DNA of 59,164 bases from a bacterium (lineage in GTDB: Bacteria; Krumholzibacteriota; Krumholzibacteriia; G020349025). The position numbers and the translations under genes are program-made. The notes under the pieces are model-generated. The model worked only from the letters and a program-made list of their open reading frames with translations, searched no databases and was not told where the DNA came from. Where the stretch lies: the NCBI GenBank assembly GCA_031362565.1, contig JANLSU010000020.1, positions 1-59,164 of the forward strand. Direction: 5' to 3'. This document shows positions 26,850-40,207 of this stretch, piece by piece; within the stretch, counting starts at the first letter, position 1, and each line of letters opens with the position of its first letter.

Positions 26850-27022
26850 CCTGAGGGCTCCCCGCCGGCAGCGCCTGCAAGTCGGCAACATCCCCGGAAT
26901 TCCGCCGCGCTCCGGCGATCCACGGAGCGCCGGCCCAGCAGTTCCCCGTAACCACTCGGCCTCTTCCTGGTCCGCCGCCTGACGAAGGTGCTACGCGGGC
27001 AATTTACTTCACGAGCATCGCC

Positions 27023-27088
27023 ACCGAACGCCCTGCCGATAAGCCGCGGGCGCCGAAGGCGACCGTCAGTTTCATCGCCTTGTCAACC
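27023..27088 (-). mobile_element. attC-like integron cassette recombination site (degenerate R'')
   Basis: Minus strand GGTTGAC AAGGC GATGAAAC TGACGG TCGCC TTC GGCGC CCG CG GCTTATC GGCAGGGC GTTCGGT: R''/L''/L'/R' layout, imperfect hairpin with two unpaired bases on the left arm, 66 bp, overlapping the terC stop codon. Confidence 0.6.
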
Positions 27089-28150
27089 CACGCTCTCACC
27101 GCGACGTTCAGCAATCAAGGACACCGCTACACCTACACCCAGGATCAGAAGCACGACTCCGAGCAAGTAGAAGTTGAAGCTGCTGCCGAGCACCTCTTTC
27201 AGCCACTTTGCGATCAGCATTTTCACGCCAACCACCATCAACACCAACGCGAGTGCCACCTTGAGGTATCTGAACTTGTCAAGCATGCCTCCCAGCGCGA
27301 AGTAGAGAGAGCGGAGGCCGAGGATCGCAAAGACGTTACTGGTGAACACCAAGAACGGGTCGCCTGTAATAGCGAAAATCGCCGGGATCGAGTCCACCGC
27401 AAAAACCAAGTCCGTAAACTCGACCATGATCAGGGCCAAGGCCAAGGGCGTCAGCATCCACGTGCCGGGCCGAGCCTGGTCCACCGCCGCATCCGGGAGG
27501 GCGGCCGTCCCAGGGAACTCGCTCTCGTATGAGGCCGGCGCTCCAGCCCGAACGACGAAGTGCTGTCCGTGGAACCGCGAGGTGATCGGTAAGAATCGCC
27601 GGGTGAGCCGTACGATGATGTTCTGGTTGGGGTCCGTGTGGTCCGTCTTCAAGATCAGCATCTTGATCCCTGTGACGATCAGGAAACCGCCAAAGACGTA
27701 GAGGATCCAGTGGTACTTTGCAATCAAGGTGGCGCCCAGTGCAATCATGGCCCCGCGCATCGCCAGGGCGCCCAGGATGCCCCAAAACAGCACTCGATGC
27801 TGGTAGATCGGCGGAACCGCAAAGAAGCCGAAGAGCATCGCGATCACGAAGATGTTGTCGATGCTCAGCGACTTCTCGACGACGTACCCCGTCAGGTATT
27901 TGAGCGTCGCCTTCGTGCCGTCGTTTGTCACCCCATCGACAGCATCGATCGCACTACCCAGTCCCAGCCAGTGGTTTTCGTACCCGTAGTACACGAACAC
28001 GGAGAAGGTCAGCCCCACCGTAGCCCACACGGCGGACCACGCCAGGGCCTCCTTCAGCGTGACCACATGGGCTTTCCGATGGAAAACCCCCAGGTCGAGC
28101 GCCAGCATCAGTAACACAAAGAGGATGAATCCCACCCACAGCCAGACCAT
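27083..28150 (-). CDS. terC: TerC/Alx-family integral membrane metal-homeostasis protein
   Basis: EKSLSIDNIFV, QHRVLFWGILGAL, DLVFAVDSIPAI, FTSNVFAILGLRSLYF motifs; many TM helices. Confidence 0.95.
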   Translation of the reverse strand: MVWLWVGFILFVLLMLALDLGVFHRKAHVVTLKEALAWSAVWATVGLTFSVFVYYGYENHWLGLGSAIDAVDGVTNDGTKATLKYLTGYVVEKSLSIDNIFVIAMLFGFFAVPPIYQHRVLFWGILGALAMRGAMIALGATLIAKYHWILYVFGGFLIVTGIKMLILKTDHTDPNQNIIVRLTRRFLPITSRFHGQHFVVRAGAPASYESEFPGTAALPDAAVDQARPGTWMLTPLALALIMVEFTDLVFAVDSIPAIFAITGDPFLVFTSNVFAILGLRSLYFALGGMLDKFRYLKVALALVLMVVGVKMLIAKWLKEVLGSSFNFYLLGVVLLILGVGVAVSLIAERRGESVG

Positions 28151-28191
28151 TCAAGACTCTCCTTGCTGGTTCGGTCTCATTCTACAAGCCG

Positions 28192-29004
28192 TCACGATTT
28201 CGACGGCCCACGCAGCGCCTCGATCTCTCGTCGCAACGCGCGTACCTCGTCGAGGACCAACCGGGTGTGCGCGTCTCCCTCTTCCTTTAGATCATCCGTA
28301 ACCTGTGACTGCATCGCGTTAACAACCACCGCAATGAATAGGTTCAACACCATGAACGTCGCGATGAGCAGGTAAACCACGAAGAAGATCCAAGCATACG
28401 GCGACTGCGTCATGACGGCGCGTGCAATGTCGGGCCAGCCTTCGACGGTCATCACCTGGAACAGTGTGAACAGCGACGCGCCGAGGTTGCCGAAGACTTC
28501 CGGTGCGATTGCACCGAACAACTTCGTGGCCATCACCGCCGACACGTAGAGCACGAGTCCCATTAGACCGAGGACCGACGCCATGCCTGGCATTGCTTTG
28601 AGCAGAGCGCCGATCACCCGGCGCATCGACGGCACCAGCGAAACCAGCCGGAGCACCCGCAGCACGCGCAGGGCGCGCAGGACGGCAAACGCGCTGCCCG
28701 CAGGAACTACCGCTATCCCGACGACCACAAGATCGAACACGCGCCAGGGGTCCTGGAAGAAGCGACCACGGTGAACGAAGCAGCGCAACAGTAGTTCGAC
28801 TACGAACACCAGCAGCACCAGTCGGTCGAACACGTAAAGCGAATCGCCGAATCGTGCTGCGACCGGCGGTGAGGTTTCGATTCCGAGCGCAATGGCGTTC
28901 GCAACGATCAGCGCGGTAATAAGTCTCTCGAACCGCGAACTTTCGATGAAAACGCGAACGCGCGCGCGCAAGCTCGATGCGAGATCGGCATTGCTCGTAT
29001 TCAC
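28192..29004 (-). CDS. Prokaryotic voltage-gated cation channel (BacNav/NaChBac superfamily)
   Basis: Six TM helices; S4 LRALRVLRVLRL; pore helix/filter LFTLFQVMTVEGWPD; S6 LNLFIAVVVNAM; C-terminal coiled coil. Confidence 0.93.
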   Translation of the reverse strand: MNTSNADLASSLRARVRVFIESSRFERLITALIVANAIALGIETSPPVAARFGDSLYVFDRLVLLVFVVELLLRCFVHRGRFFQDPWRVFDLVVVGIAVVPAGSAFAVLRALRVLRVLRLVSLVPSMRRVIGALLKAMPGMASVLGLMGLVLYVSAVMATKLFGAIAPEVFGNLGASLFTLFQVMTVEGWPDIARAVMTQSPYAWIFFVVYLLIATFMVLNLFIAVVVNAMQSQVTDDLKEEGDAHTRLVLDEVRALRREIEALRGPSKS

Positions 29005-29049
29005 GTTGCCTTCTCCATGGATGCCGCGATATTAGCGCTCATCACGAAA

Positions 29050-29170
29050 CCCCGTCGTGTCGATCCTCGTTCCCGCAGTAGGAAGCGATCCCGGCCGAAC
29101 ATCTCGGGGGACCAGACGATCTCAGCCACCGACGATCCGCCGGTGGGCGTCGTGGTGGGACCTCCAGCCG
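29050..29170 (-). ncRNA. Candidate structured cis-regulatory leader RNA upstream of channel-terC
   Basis: Hairpin CCACCGGCG-GAT-CGTCGGTGG followed by a long interrupted stem CCCCG/CGGGG, TGT(T)CG/CGACA, TCG/CGA, TTCC/GGAA, lying between a promoter and the RBS. Confidence 0.55.
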
Positions 29171-29190
29171 CACAAAAGTGACCGCGGAGC

Positions 29191-29219
29191 ATTCTACGTC
29201 TCCAGCCAGTCGTCGGCAA
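29191..29219 (-). promoter_or_regulatory. Putative sigma-70 promoter of the channel-terC operon
   Basis: TTGCCG (29219-29214), 17 bp, TAGAAT (29196-29191). Confidence 0.65.
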
Positions 29220-29230
29220 CTCCATCGGCC

Positions 29231-29345
29231 GTCACCAGAGTGGTTCGCAATGACGGCGGCACTTCCGTAGACACCAACGCCGGACTCCCGGGCATCGCAC
29301 AGGGCGCCGTGGAGTGGGGCGACTATGACAATGACGGCGTTTTGC
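29231..29345 (+). pseudogene. Remnant of an FG-GAP/VCBS-type repeat
   Basis: VTRVVRNDGGTSVDTNAGLPGIAQGAVEWGDYDNDG; a single repeat without a plausible gene around it. Confidence 0.6.
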
Positions 29346-29400
29346 TGGATCAGCTTCCTGGGGAGATTCTGACGGCGACGGTGGTCTGGGTTTGGCCGCA

Positions 29401-29463
29401 ACGGGGGCCATTTCAAAATTTCAAACGCCCTTCCAGCCGTCGCGGTTTTGAAGATGGCCCCGT
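29401..29463. repeat. Imperfect 18-bp inverted repeat, possible IS/MITE scar
   Basis: ACGGGGGCCATTTCAAAA (29401-29418) vs reverse complement of 29446-29463, ACGGGGCCATCTTCAAAA. Confidence 0.6.
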
Positions 29464-29937
29464 AGATCAGCAGGACGCGGTGGGCAGAGTACTATCGCAG
29501 CGCGCGCGCGTTCCTCTTGACACTGACTTCATGGAGGTAGCGATGGCTGTCCAAAAAAGCGTGCTCGTGGTTGGCCTGGATCCGACCCTGATTGATTTTT
29601 CCGATCGCTGCTACCCGCCGGGCATGAGAGCTGTGATCGTTGGTGAGCAAGGTCGAGTCCACTTGCTTCGCAACTCGGTTTCAGTCCGTTTCTGGCCGGT
29701 TCAGTGTGTTTCCGGGGACGCGGGGTAGAATAAGCCAACGGTAAGCCGTTGCCGAAATGTCCTGTCTCGACCATGGAAAGAGCTCACATTCGAAAGCAGC
29801 GTACGGCGAACATCGCGGCGGGGCTCTTCGATCTCGAGAACATCGTCCTGTCCCCGCGGCGCTGGTGTTGTAGAGTGGACCGACGGGAGCCCGGAAGACG
29901 ACTCGTGGCACCGTTGCCGCATCCTACCCGCCGGGAA

Positions 29938-30720
29938 ATGGAATCGATGTTCGGACACCATTCGCAACTCGCGCTGATCGCAGTCTACTGGGTCTCGATG
30001 AGCGCGCTGCGCGCCGACGCACAGGTAGCCGCCGCACCTCCACCCCGCCTGGCGCTGGAGATCGAGACGGGGCCAGTCTGGCAGGGCAGGAACGATGTGC
30101 AGATTCCCAACGACGCCACCGGCACGCGCTTCTCGCTAGTCGATGTCATCGGGCAGGGGCCGTGGCCCGCGGCGCGCGTCTACCTGAGCTGGAATTTCAG
30201 CGACAAGCGTTCCCTGCGCGCGCTGGTCGCGCCGCTTACGATCACCGAAGCGGGGGATCTGGACGGACCGGTGGCGTTTGCCACAAGAGACTTCGTGGCG
30301 GGTCCGGTGGAGGCGACCTACAAGTTCAACTCCTACCGGCTCAGCTACCGCCAGCGCTTCCACCAGGGCGCGCGATGGTCCTGGTGGTGGGGCCTGACCG
30401 CCAAGATCCGCGATGCGCGGATTGCGCTCGCGCAGGGCGATGTCAGCGCCGCGAAGGACGACCTGGGATTCGTGCCGCTGGCGCATCTGGCGTGGGAGTG
30501 GCGGCCGGTCGCGCACTGGCGCGCGACCTTCGACGCCGACGCGCTGGCCGGCGGACCCGGCCGCGCCGAGGATGTGGCCCTGAAGCTGTCGCGGGACCTG
30601 GGCGAACGGACGCGCTTGGCCTTGGGGTACCGGATGGTCGAGGGCGGCGCCGACGTGGATGAAGTCTACAACTTCGCCTGGCTGCACTATGCCGTGGCGT
30701 CGCTGTACGTGTCCTTCTAG
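29938..30720 (+). CDS. Hypothetical outer-membrane beta-barrel protein
   Basis: Signal-like segment ending ADAQ; alternating amphipathic strands rich in W/Y; C-terminal SLYVSF. Start uncertain (29938/29947/29998). Confidence 0.7.
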   Translation: MESMFGHHSQLALIAVYWVSMSALRADAQVAAAPPPRLALEIETGPVWQGRNDVQIPNDATGTRFSLVDVIGQGPWPAARVYLSWNFSDKRSLRALVAPLTITEAGDLDGPVAFATRDFVAGPVEATYKFNSYRLSYRQRFHQGARWSWWWGLTAKIRDARIALAQGDVSAAKDDLGFVPLAHLAWEWRPVAHWRATFDADALAGGPGRAEDVALKLSRDLGERTRLALGYRMVEGGADVDEVYNFAWLHYAVASLYVSF

Positions 30721-31017: not shown

Positions 31018-31995
31018 CTACGCGCGCGACTCGGCCTCGAGCTGCAACAACAGATCGCGGAAGGCCGCCAGGCTCGAGATCGCGTGGACATTTGGCCGTT
31101 GTAACTTCCGCGCATACATTGGCGCCGCCGCGCCGCCCAAGACGAGTGCGTGCCCGGCCGGCAAGGCTGCAGCCAACACCTCCAGATCGGTGCGCAGACG
31201 TGCATCGGGTGCGGGGTGCACGATGCTCAGGGCGATGACCCGCGCCGGCGCGAGTTCCGCCGCGCGGGCGATCTCGGACGCCGGCAGGTCCGTCCCCAGG
31301 TAGAGGACGCGCCAGCCCATCGAGCTCGCCGACGTTGCGGCGAGCAAGGCGCCCAGCTCGTGCCGCTGTCCAACCGGCGTGCCGACGACGATCGGCAGCG
31401 CGTCGGGAGCCGGATCGCAACTCCTTAAAATGTCATCGAGCACGTGCCGTATCACGGCGCTGGCCGCGTGCTCCTGGGCCGGACCGAGATCGCCTGCGGT
31501 CCACAGCAGGCCGATTGCATACAGGAGCGGCACCAGCACATCGTCGGCAAACTGCGCGAGCGGCAGGACGATCGTCGCGCGGCGCAACTCCGTCTCGAGC
31601 ACCACCGGCTCAAGAGCCAGAACGGCATCGAGACAGCGTTTCACGAGCCCATCGTCGGTGCTTCCCTCGCCAGGTCCCGGTTCCACCGCGCGCTCGCTTT
31701 CGGTCGGGCGGCGTTGCCCGTCCGATACAACCAGGGCCCGCAGCGCATCGTTCGACTGCTTGGCGAGTTGCCCGATGTTGCGGCCGGCGTCGGCGGCACG
31801 TTTCAGCAGTTCCAACCGCTCGATGTCGGCGTCGGAGTACAGGCGCTGGCCGCCGGCGGTCCGGCGCGGCTGCACCACGGCATAACGCCGCTCCCAGACC
31901 CGCAAAACGTGCGGCGAGAGCCCGGTCCGGGCCGAAACCAGTCGCACGGGGTGCCACGCCTGGTCATCTGGGAGGAGACTGCTCATCGGATCCAT
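31018..31995 (-). CDS. CarH/LitR-like MerR-family regulator with cobalamin-binding domain (putative AdoB12 photoreceptor)
   Basis: MerR HTH (LRVWERRY...RTAGGQRLYS); W-x9-EH motif (WTAGDLGPAQEH); B12 motif QRHELG...YLG.DLP. Confidence 0.9.
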   Translation of the reverse strand: MDPMSSLLPDDQAWHPVRLVSARTGLSPHVLRVWERRYAVVQPRRTAGGQRLYSDADIERLELLKRAADAGRNIGQLAKQSNDALRALVVSDGQRRPTESERAVEPGPGEGSTDDGLVKRCLDAVLALEPVVLETELRRATIVLPLAQFADDVLVPLLYAIGLLWTAGDLGPAQEHAASAVIRHVLDDILRSCDPAPDALPIVVGTPVGQRHELGALLAATSASSMGWRVLYLGTDLPASEIARAAELAPARVIALSIVHPAPDARLRTDLEVLAAALPAGHALVLGGAAAPMYARKLQRPNVHAISSLAAFRDLLLQLEAESRA

Positions 31996-32012
31996 GCCCT
32001 AAGATACCCAGG

Positions 32013-32099
32013 CGTCTAGTGAATGTCTACATATTTTTCTTCGACAAGGCCTTGACAAGACACTGGGGCGCCCCTACTATCCTGGACAGGAGCTAGACA
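32013..32099. promoter_or_regulatory. Sigma-70 promoter with CarH-type 11-bp-spaced direct repeats
   Basis: TTGACA (32052-57), 17 bp, TACTAT (32075-80). TnGACA pairs 11 bp apart at 32041/32052 and 32083/32094; opposite-strand pair TAGACA/TAGACG at 32024/32013. Confidence 0.75.
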
Positions 32100-32144
32100 G
32101 CTCCATCGAGAAAAGAAGCCCGATTTCCAGGAGGATCGAGAATC

Positions 32145-32852
32145 ATGAAGCGCAGCACCCCCATCGCCCTTGCCCTCGTCGCCCTGCTCGCATTCGGTGC
32201 GGGTTGCAGCGACGACGATAATCCCGTGACCCCGACCCCGCAGGCGACCGCCAATTTGCGGGTCCTGCACGCTTCGCCCAACGCACCCGCGGTGGACGTC
32301 CTCGTGGACGGCCAGGTCGTGGCCGCAAACGTGCCCTACAAGGCGTTCTCGCAGTACCTCTCGGTGGCCGCCGGCGCGCGCAACATCAAGGTGCGGGCGA
32401 GTGCGGACCCGAGCTTGGTCGTCATCGATGTGAGTCCGGCGCTGGGCGCGAACACCGACTACACGGTGATCGCACGGAACCTGGTCGCGACCATCGAGCC
32501 GTGGTTGCTCACCGACAACAACTCTGCGCCCGGCACCGGGCAGATCAAACTCCGGCTGGTGCATGCCGCGCCGGCTGCGCCGGCCGTCGACATCTACGTC
32601 ACCGCGCCCGGGGCCGATCTTTCGACGGCCACTCCGACGCTATCCGACGTGCCGTACGCGGTCGCGTCGAATTACCTCGCCGTGCCGGCGGGCACCTATC
32701 AGGTGCGGGTCTGTCCGGCAAACACCATCAACGTGGTAATCGACAGCGGCGCGCTGACCTTGACTGCGGGCCAAATCCGTACCGCAGTGGCCGTCGACAA
32801 TACGGGTGGCGGCTCGCCGTTCGGCGCCGTGGTTCTGCCCGACCGCAATTGA
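32145..32852 (+). CDS. DUF4397-domain lipoprotein
   Basis: AGGAGG RBS; FGAGC lipobox; two repeats of LRVLHASPNAPAVDV / LRLVHAAPAAPAVDI. Confidence 0.9.
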   Translation: MKRSTPIALALVALLAFGAGCSDDDNPVTPTPQATANLRVLHASPNAPAVDVLVDGQVVAANVPYKAFSQYLSVAAGARNIKVRASADPSLVVIDVSPALGANTDYTVIARNLVATIEPWLLTDNNSAPGTGQIKLRLVHAAPAAPAVDIYVTAPGADLSTATPTLSDVPYAVASNYLAVPAGTYQVRVCPANTINVVIDSGALTLTAGQIRTAVAVDNTGGGSPFGAVVLPDRN

Positions 32853-32922
32853 ACAGAAGTTCCTGAGAGCAAATGTTTGAACCATGCGAGCCCGCTGGGC
32901 TCGCGAACAAGGAGTACCGACC

Positions 32923-33165
32923 GTGAAGAAGCTGGACGTGATCGCTGCGGTTCTGGTGGTCGTGGGCGCGCTGAACTGGGGTCTGGTCGCGGTTGCGAAG
33001 TTCGACCTGGTGGCGGCGCTCTTCGGAATGGGTTTCGGCGAGACCTCGGCTCTGACCTCGGTGGTCTACGCCCTGGTGGGACTCGCCGGCCTGTACCAGG
33101 GACTCGGATGGAAGAGCGTACAGCGCCGCTGGCATTCCCAGCCTGCGATGCACTCCGTTCGCTGA
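32923..33165 (+). CDS. DUF378-family small membrane protein
   Basis: GTG start after AAGGAG; LVVVGALNWGLVAVAKFDLVAALFG...VVYALVGLAGLY. Confidence 0.88.
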   Translation: MKKLDVIAAVLVVVGALNWGLVAVAKFDLVAALFGMGFGETSALTSVVYALVGLAGLYQGLGWKSVQRRWHSQPAMHSVR

Positions 33166-33240
33166 TCTGAATCGGAAGAATTTCAACCTGCCGGCCGCAG
33201 CCGCTCGCACGAGCCGCATGCGGCCCGGAAGAATGAGGAG

Positions 33241-33789
33241 ATGCACGTGATGAAGCGAGTCGAGTTGATGTCGAGTGCTGCAGCCCTGACGCTGGCCCTG
33301 TTGGCCGGCGCCGGAACGGCCGCAGCGGGTACGCCGAAACCGGAGGTCAAAGACATGACCACTTCGCAGGTCAGTAAGACGCAAGACATTGTGATGACCG
33401 CGGTCGCCGCCGGCTCTTTCAAGACGCTCGCCGCGGCCCTGCAAGCCGCCGGGCTCGTCGAGACGTTGCAAGGCAAGGGGCCGTTCACGGTCTTCGCACC
33501 GACGGACGAGGCCTTCGCCAAGCTGCCCAAGGGCACCGTCGAAGAGCTGTTGAAGCCCGAGAACAAGGCCAAGTTGACCGGCATCCTGACCTATCACGTG
33601 GTCGCCGGCAATGTCATGGCGAAGGATGTCGTCGGCCTGAAGAGCGCGAAGACCGTCAATGGGCAGTCGCTCACCGTCGTGGTCAAGGACGGCAAGGTCG
33701 CCGTCGACGGCGCCAACGTCGTGAAGACCGACATCGCGTGCTCCAACGGCGTCATCCACGTCATCGACAGCGTCGTCCTGCCGAAGTAA
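33241..33789 (+). CDS. Fasciclin (FAS1) domain protein, secreted
   Basis: [32 protein letters not shown]. Confidence 0.95.
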
Positions 33790-39076: not shown

Positions 39077-40207
39077 ATGCGCTTGGGCAAGCTCGAGATC
39101 GAACCGTTATACTCAATGCTCGCGTTCGTGCCGGTCGCGGCCGGGCTCGAACTCGCGCATGCGAGTCCCCCGTGGGTTTTCGCCGCGTCGGCGCTAGCCA
39201 TCATTCCGCTCGCCGGCCTCATGGGGCGCGCCACCGAGAACCTGACCGAGCACGTCGGGCCCGGTGTCGGCGGCCTCCTGAATGCGTCCTTCGGCAACGC
39301 CGCCGAACTCATCATCGCGCTCATGGCGCTACAGCGCGGCCTGTATGACGTCGTAAAGGCGTCGATCACCGGGTCCATCATCGGCAACGTGCTGCTCGTG
39401 CTAGGCCTCTCGATCCTGGCGGGCGGCTTGAAGCACGAACGCCTGCGCTTCAACGCCACGGCTGCAAGTACCGGTGCGACGCTGTTGGCGCTTTCCGCCA
39501 TCGGTCTCGTGGTGCCGGCGATCTTTCACCAGATCGTGCAGACCCACCCGAGCACCCACGAGCACGACTTGAGCCTCGAGATCGCAATCGTGCTGTTCGC
39601 GACCTACTTGTTGAGCCTGTTGTTCTCGCTGCGGACACACAAGCACCTGTACGCCGGGCAGCCGACCGGCGGCGATTCCGCCGTTGCGGCCGGCGCGCAT
39701 GGCGGGCATGCGGCACATGGCAAGCATGGCGGCGGGCACGGGGCCGGCTGGAGCGTGCGGACATCCATCCTCGTGCTCTTGGGAGCCACGATCTTCGTGG
39801 CCTGGATGAGCGAGCTTCTGGTCGGCTCGGTCGAGCACACCGCGGAAGCGCTCGGCATGACCAAGGTCTTCGTAGGCGTTATTCTGGTGGCGATCATCGG
39901 CAATGCCGCCGAGCACAGCACGGCAATTCTCGTCGCCCGCAAGAATCAAATGGATTTGGCGCTCAACATCGCAGTGGGTTCGAGCATTCAGGTCGCGCTC
40001 TTCGTGGCGCCGGTGCTGGTCTTCGTGAGCCACGCGATCGGCCGGCCCATGGACTTGGTGTTCACGACGTTCGAGGTGCTCGCCGTCGGCGCCTCCGTCG
40101 CCGTCCTCAGCCTCGTCTCGACCGACGGCGAATCCAACTGGCTCGAAGGCGCTCAACTCCTCGCCGTCTACGTCATCCTGGCGCTGGCGTTTTTCTTCCT
40201 GCCGTGA
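39077..40207 (+). CDS. cax: Ca2+/H+ exchanger (CAX/ChaA family)
   Basis: Two GNAAE alpha-repeat motifs, [21 protein letters not shown]. Confidence 0.95.

Follow-up and report, generated by a model that had tools for sequence, protein, structure and literature searches.

A NavAb-like bacterial voltage-gated channel with a TVEGWPD selectivity filter and an Alx-type terC neighbour: placement in the sodium-channel branch and probable permeability to calcium

The window analysed here, i.e., the whole stretch of 59,164 nucleotides, carries on its minus strand (28192-29004) a gene encoding a one-domain voltage-gated cation channel whose selectivity filter reads TVEGWPD. Its sequence indicates that this channel descends from the sodium-channel branch of the family and not from CavMr, the one known bacterial calcium channel. 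Because it lies on the former branch, some passage of calcium is probable, while a strictly calcium-selective pore is a possible, less likely outcome. The best explanation, to which we give a probability of about 45%, is that of a homotetrameric, depolarisation-activated cation channel that conducts both Na+ and Ca2+ (PCa/PNa of roughly 1-50), possibly blocked by Ca2+ and below CavMr-grade selectivity. The family is known, and the channel is a genuine but uncharacterised variant within it. All the statements made below on its selectivity are derived from mutants of other proteins, and the extrapolation from single mutants to a filter combining Gly4 and Asp7 with Pro6 and a short P2 register could be in error in either direction.

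The reading frame is open over 270 codons from a GTG start, stop included, and encodes a protein of 270 amino acids; the plus strand across the same interval is interrupted by stops. Two observations favour this start: a purine-rich GGAGAAGG lies immediately 5' of the GTG, and homologues align with the channel from residue 1. The protein matched the Pfam Ion_trans family (PF00520, E=2e-43), and it was the single one-domain PF00520 channel found when its whole genome was searched. Pfam, the alignment, and an AlphaFold model agree on a member of the BacNav superfamily with a single six-transmembrane (6TM) domain, composed of an S1-S4 sensor and an S5-P1-filter-P2-S6 pore, and a C-terminal helical/coiled-coil tail. 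The S4 segment, LRALRVLRVLRLV, follows the RxxRxxRxxR pattern, with gating charges R110, R113, R116, and R119 (28648-28677, minus strand) equivalent by alignment to NavAb R99-R108, and the conserved counter-charges of the family are kept. The AlphaFold model built with the alignment (pLDDT 88) superimposed on NavAb with an rmsd of 1.3-1.5 Å over about 220 residues; a single-sequence model (pLDDT 53) was set aside. The best PDB sequence matches were NavAb-like channels such as NavMs (229-231 bits), the fold matches were 43-48% identical, and a PDB search found no CavMr-type structure. With NavAb, the channel shares the four-arginine S4, a short P2-S6 loop, the C-terminal helix, and the side of the tree, whereas an Asp stands at the position of NavAb N49. 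In databases, its homologues are annotated either as a voltage-gated sodium channel or as an ion transporter.

The filter, T186-V-E-G-W-P-D192 (28429-28449, minus strand; pore sequence FQVM-TVEGWPD-IARAVM), was located by translation and alignment. It differs from the NavAb filter TLESWSM, and more generally from the canonical TLESWxxG arrangement with Ser4 and a long P2 register, since the following P2 helix is one residue shorter than that of NavAb. Its conservation was analyzed in a set of 120 proteins, made up of the window's own and 119 homologues with 76-92% identity. T186, E188, G189, W190, and P191 were each present in all 120, V187 in 119, and D192 in 118, position 7 being Asp or Glu throughout; the four S4 arginines, D60, E70, W87, and D91 were likewise found in 120/120. 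The sequence-only reading had reported an intact four-arginine S4 and a TVEGWPD filter, and the minus-strand translation and this conservation corroborate both. In a count of 121 proteins, two of which are the window's own, 118 filters read TVEGWPD, two TVEGWPE, and one TIEGWPD. The filter is thus neither chance nor error, and purifying selection acts on what is an intact gene. The invariance of TVEGWPD is nevertheless expected and not exceptional, because 106 of the 214 core columns are also at least 97% conserved in the 120-protein set.

The filter had also been described as non-canonical, with the Gly and the terminal Asp of CavMr, and this is correct, as is the CavMr sequence TLEGWVD given for the comparison (PMC7041947). 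E3, G4, W5, and D7 are common to the channel, CavMr, its orthologues in Meiothermus taiwanensis and M. rufus, and the eukaryotic domains of the alignment. These orthologues also have the short W-x-D-[IV] register of the channel, as do the TLEDWTD and eukaryotic rows. Val6 of CavMr, however, is replaced by Pro191 and Leu2 by Val. Moreover, the short register occurred in 56 of 76 rows, with at least eight changes on the tree, and Gly4 in 26 of the 64 one-domain representatives that could be parsed (7 of 71 could not), changing at least 14 times on the tree of 76 rows. This CavMr-like look is both common and labile and therefore does not mark a lineage, and the surprise of meeting a TVEGWPD filter is moderate, given how frequent Gly4 is among homologues. 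A search of the texts in a literature library found no paper with EGWPD, TVEGWPD, TLEGWPD, or TMEGWPD, and a broader motif search returned no TVEGW among the matches listed; TVEGWPD-type proteins may already be present in the tree of the CavMr paper.

The phylogeny proposed as a check by the sequence-only reading was performed with NavAb-like channels and with proxies of CavMr. When GTDB genomes were scanned for the pattern of the CavMr filter, the M. taiwanensis and M. rufus orthologues were among the matches listed, and these congeneric proteins with the same filter represented CavMr of M. ruber. The channel is 33-35% identical to them by whole-protein BLAST and 41-42% on the trimmed core, compared to 57-59% core identity with the three closest TLESWSM channels and 44-56% with the other six. 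In a mixture-model tree computed with IQ-TREE from 81 rows and 205 columns, without the filter columns and with eukaryotic domains as outgroup (long-branch row L089 left out of the final trees), all 10 TVEGWP rows shared a branch with the NavAb-like rows (support 100/97), NavAb being anchored by P0187, a close homologue with 380 bits to 5yua. The Meiothermus and TLEDWTD rows fell outside this branch, and quick trees agreed. Forcing the TVEGWP rows into a union with the Meiothermus CavMr clade was rejected (AU p=4.7e-6, in a test that took in 37 of 82 rows). The grouping with NavAb-like canonical BacNavs holds for a tree from which Bacillus-group rows are absent, whose canonical-side rows were drawn from the neighbours of the query, and in which branching within the NavAb-like side is poorly resolved; a search for a Bacillus-type anchor found no match in viral contigs, and the 34 matches in plasmids included none from Bacillus. 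The alignment agrees with this placement outside the CavMr-NavPp branch in that the channel does not have the long, Cys-containing extracellular P2-S6 loop of the Meiothermus proteins (PMC10120453), a feature described for CavMr and absent from some AnclNav-side rows. As judged from these sequences, the TVEGWPD channels form a distinct, widespread, and uncharacterised clade beside the NavAb-like channels and off the CavMr/AnclNav lineage.

Within this branch, the TVEGWPD channels and TGEAWPD-type sisters form their own subclade (98/87). The sisters (P0124, P0128, P0131, P0262, L062, L065, and L222) carry Gly as their second filter residue; in NavAb, the corresponding mutation, L176G, leads to block by divalents. 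Four further genomes of the same phylum as the window (L003-L006) carry AnclNav-type TLEDWTD channels instead, and two of these channels (L003 and L006) adjoin usp and NhaR-like genes. The exact CavMr filter, TLEGWVD, was observed on a NavAb-like, long-register scaffold in loci (L096, L110/L111, L126, L129, and L136/L137) of Alphaproteobacteria, mostly Hyphomicrobiales, with about 48-54% identity to the query, and as tandem gene pairs in several genomes among the matches listed; these channels are natural scaffold controls and possibly form heterotetramers. P0200, P0226, and P0227 (with L092, proteins of 636-677 aa) contain two matched channel stretches each and may thus be channels of two domains; the 636-aa ORF L092 has its channel match in the C-terminal half and adjoins sbtA and terC.

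Published mutants show how much the effect of each filter position depends on the scaffold. CavMr has a PCa/PNa of 218, which falls to 12 in G4S, 40 in V6T, and 144 in D7M (PMC7041947). Val6, which is Pro in our channel, therefore contributes to CavMr selectivity, whereas the terminal Asp7 is not its source, since D7M keeps a ratio of 144; the Asp had been taken as a Ca2+ mark by analogy with CavMr, where it proves dispensable. A TLEGWTD filter in the AnclNav scaffold gave a PCa/PNa of about 40, while the full CavMr filter placed in NavAb yielded no current, as did the swaps between CavMr and NavAb, and the authors concluded that the two scaffolds differ in their way of selecting (PMC7041947). 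Filter rules thus do not transfer between scaffolds. The Gly was likewise read as a mark of Ca2+ selectivity, which the canonical scaffolds contradict: the ratio of NaChBac LEGWAS stayed at 0.15 (PMC2229573), and NavAb S178G had a ratio below 0.05 and favoured Li+ (PLi/PNa 2.18; PMC12919392). In the data reported in these papers, Gly4 leads to Ca2+ selectivity in the AnclNav scaffold only and by itself brings no gain in Ca2+ in canonical ones. The question of selectivity therefore turns on the scaffold of the channel.

On a canonical scaffold, an ordinary Na+-selective BacNav, perhaps Li+-favouring, with a variant filter and serving the Na+ cycle finds support in the tree, the AU test, and the Gly4 mutants of NaChBac and NavAb. 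Position 7 argues against this. NaChBac S195D (LESWAD) reached a PCa/PNa of 17, an increase of about 100-fold, and was termed relatively non-selective and Ca2+-blocked (PMC2229573); NavAb without Met181 (M181A) rose to 0.36-0.47 and lost its exclusion of divalents (PMC12919392), and Asp or Glu stands at this position in 120/120 proteins of the clade. Val2 is considered near-neutral, since its NavAb equivalent, L176V, is little blocked by divalents (PMC10349818). Each of the NaChBac and NavAb mutants reproduces one of the filter changes of the channel, but as a single engineered change on a canonical scaffold with the long register, whereas the channel combines them naturally with Pro6 and a short register. 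A natural canonical-scaffold BacNav that passes Na+, K+, and Ca2+ is known in NsvBa of Bacillus alcalophilus (TLDSWGS), which has an alkaline-pH physiology (PMC4225499); it belongs to the Bacillus group and owes its non-selectivity to an Asp at position 3, while the channel keeps Glu3. On this evidence, we regard a purely Na+-selective channel as less probable than a mixed conductance.

The sequence-only reading had proposed Ca2+ or divalent selectivity. A raised Ca2+ permeability is plausible, but the analogy with CavMr holds only in part and fails on lineage, on the effect of Gly4, on Asp7, and on Pro6. A native, highly Ca2+-selective channel working in the manner of CavMr within an independent NavAb-like lineage appears unlikely: the channel is not an AnclNav, the supporting Val6 is a Pro, the CavMr-type extracellular loop is lacking, and Gly4 is common and labile. 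The shared E3, G4, W5, and D7, the short P2 register known from the Meiothermus orthologues and eukaryotic domains, the ratio of about 40 kept by TLEGWTD in the AnclNav scaffold, and the TVDGWTD filter of CatSper3 (PMC7041947), which also has Val2 and Gly4, speak in its favour. We keep it under consideration because the published mutants consulted do not combine Gly4, Asp7, and Pro6 in a short register.

Genomic context offers two further points for Ca2+. P2-type ATPases lie within 2.5 kb of TVEGW channels in two of 39 locus clusters, and a Ca2+/H+ exchanger gene (39077-40207, above the TIGR00378 cut-off) is located in the window itself. The latter was rejected as a partner of the channel, since it is 10 kb away with several unrelated genes between, and no match to it was found in any related locus searched.

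The gene directly downstream encodes a 355-aa membrane protein of the TerC/Alx subfamily (27083-28150, minus strand), assigned from Pfam TerC and from TIGR03718 (381 bits against a curated cut-off of 246), the subfamily of E. coli Alx. It starts 41 nt past the channel stop on the same strand with its own AAGGAG, and the two genes, which recur side by side, are probable operon partners. A second terC paralogue, 55% identical, was observed elsewhere in the genome (G000 contig C55, 62303-63277). Flanks of 2 kb or more were available for 47 TVEGW loci, which formed 39 clusters at 95%; terC was found within 2.5 kb in 14 of them, compared to 3 of 80 control clusters with other filters (1/15 + 2/65), and a single-query search placed it directly downstream on the same strand in 10 of the 39. 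These counts are not independent, because 19 of 28 TerC rows belong to one inherited clade, although several other TerC types also occur. The link is thus real, and partly a single inheritance.

The pairing with terC, which had been read as consistent with Ca2+ selectivity, therefore stands as a linkage but not as evidence for Ca2+: the partner is of the Alx type, and TerC also flanks TLESWSM, TLEGWVE, TLDGWSE, and TLEGWVD channels, so that such a neighbour does not predict the ion. Since Alx of E. coli is an exporter of Mn2+ under alkaline conditions (bioRxiv 10.1101/2023.05.07.539761), a divalent-permeable channel acting in Mn2+ handling, as an entry route or a sensor with Alx as the exporter, might be imagined. 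The probable operon and the presence of at least four TerC types or arrangements beside TVEGWPD channels would fit, but terC is absent within 2.5 kb from 25 of the 39 clusters, and a search of the window and 20 related loci gave no yybP-ykoY, Na+, or other riboswitch at the Rfam gathering level (two chance-level matches at E<=5), a further difference from E. coli Alx, as is the linkage to a channel gene. We consider this reading very improbable.

The neighbourhood as a whole, with NhaR-like, SbtA, and Alx-type genes, leans toward Na+, pH, and Mn2+ stress over Ca2+ signalling. Within 2.5 kb, the 39 clusters contained NhaR-like genes (4), SbtA (2), carbonic anhydrase (1), and a presumably DabB-like subunit with PRK08168 as its best model (1); over the neighbourhoods as a whole, SbtA occurred in 2-3 and carbonic anhydrase in 1-2 clusters, NhaR-like genes in 6/39 within 5 kb, and HPF, Usp, and HtpX also recurred. 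Three of the six LysR neighbours exceed the NCBIfam NhaR cut-off, and two of the remaining three are cut by contig ends. Neighbour counts at the test loci are inflated, because queries were picked from those loci. In E. coli, NhaR regulates nhaA at high salt and high pH (PMC6307784), and the Navs of Bacillus are reported to let Na+ re-enter for pH homeostasis (PMC4225499). The NhaR-like and SbtA neighbours thus add to the case for a Na+-selective channel, as does the occurrence of NhaR-like genes beside TLEDWTD channels, whose filter is that of the Na+-preferring NavPp (PMC7041947). The context thus suggests a role in Na+/pH stress, although two points speak against it: the channel's own genome gave no NhaR or SbtA match at E<=1e-10, and a section heading of the Alx preprint states that Alx does not maintain cellular pH.

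In the interval 31018-33789 of the window, a regulator gene with MerR and B12-binding domains, presumably CarH-like, is divergent from DUF4397, DUF378, and fasciclin genes; locus L031 has a regulator of this kind close to its own channel and terC genes. In three sediment RNA runs of one study, 7-9% of words were present, and contigs mostly from relatives with less than 95% identity span both genes, one of them bridging the gap between channel and terC; they were not counted as expression, because they reveal neither transcription nor strand.

A leader of about 150 nt (29005-29152, minus strand) is co-inherited with the channel in at least ten related loci, as found by locus comparison. Over the last 100 nt, 66-81 positions agree with the window, which is about the level seen at four-fold degenerate sites (66-78%). 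The consensus fold reached only -4.0 kcal/mol, with an unfavourable covariation term and a double change of any kind in 3 of 16 pairs. A structured RNA was thus rejected in favour of plain co-inheritance, in agreement with the lack of an Rfam match or a supported RNA structure in this interval; a promoter and terminator scan of the locus gave matches at the level of shuffled sequence. In locus L052, the leader is broken by inserted sequence whose long inverted ends give it the look of a miniature mobile element. The leader, the channel, and terC lie in a segment of lower GC (27000-30000; 58-62% against 65% for the genome). Apparent gene remnants were observed upstream of the channel (29230-29730), one fragment starting near 29544, and a short stretch among them presumably corresponds to an FG-GAP-type repeat. 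The clade was found in 2 of 208 genomes of its own phylum, including its own genome, and in 1 of 401 genomes of the phylum to which a Gemmatimonadaceae genome belongs. In the phylum of a Myxococcales genome, 54 of 401 genomes have some homologue, but none of the 30 loci retrieved there was of this clade. This patchy spread, the lower GC, the varying flanks, and the co-inherited leader suggest that leader, channel, and terC form an acquired, horizontally moving cassette.

Under the preferred reading of a mixed conductance, depolarisation would move the four-arginine S4 and open a NavAb-like tetramer. The Glu188 ring may still pass Na+, Gly189 may widen the pore entrance, and the outer Asp192 ring, in place of the NavAb Met that contributes to the exclusion of divalents, would raise Ca2+ permeability, so that both ions would pass with a modest Ca2+ preference or a Ca2+ block. 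The mobile channel-terC cassette might act in Na+, alkaline-pH, or Mn2+ stress, with the channel as a cation re-entry route when the membrane depolarises at high pH.

A 2026 paper still calls CavMr the only native prokaryotic Ca2+ channel and poses the question of why Gly4 gives Ca2+ selectivity in CavMr and not in NavAb or NaChBac (PMC12919392); our literature search found no second native bacterial Cav among the matches listed. With a NavAb-like body, the Gly4 and Asp7 of CavMr, and a short P2 register, the TVEGWPD clade is a natural intermediate, and the channel a test case for whether scaffold, register, or position 7 decides selectivity. The links to Alx-type terC, NhaR-like genes, and bicarbonate uptake provide a lead on the roles of such channels outside alkaliphilic Bacillus. 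It is doubtful that the clade represents another lineage, placed independently of CavMr, of voltage-gated channels that are native to prokaryotes and selective for Ca2+; such a lineage would travel with an Alx-type Mn2+ exporter and owe its selectivity to Gly4, Pro6, Asp7, and a shortened P2 helix within a NavAb-like body. If it did, Ca2+ selectivity would be spread across the BacNav tree, and the clade would offer a structurally tractable natural bacterial Cav.
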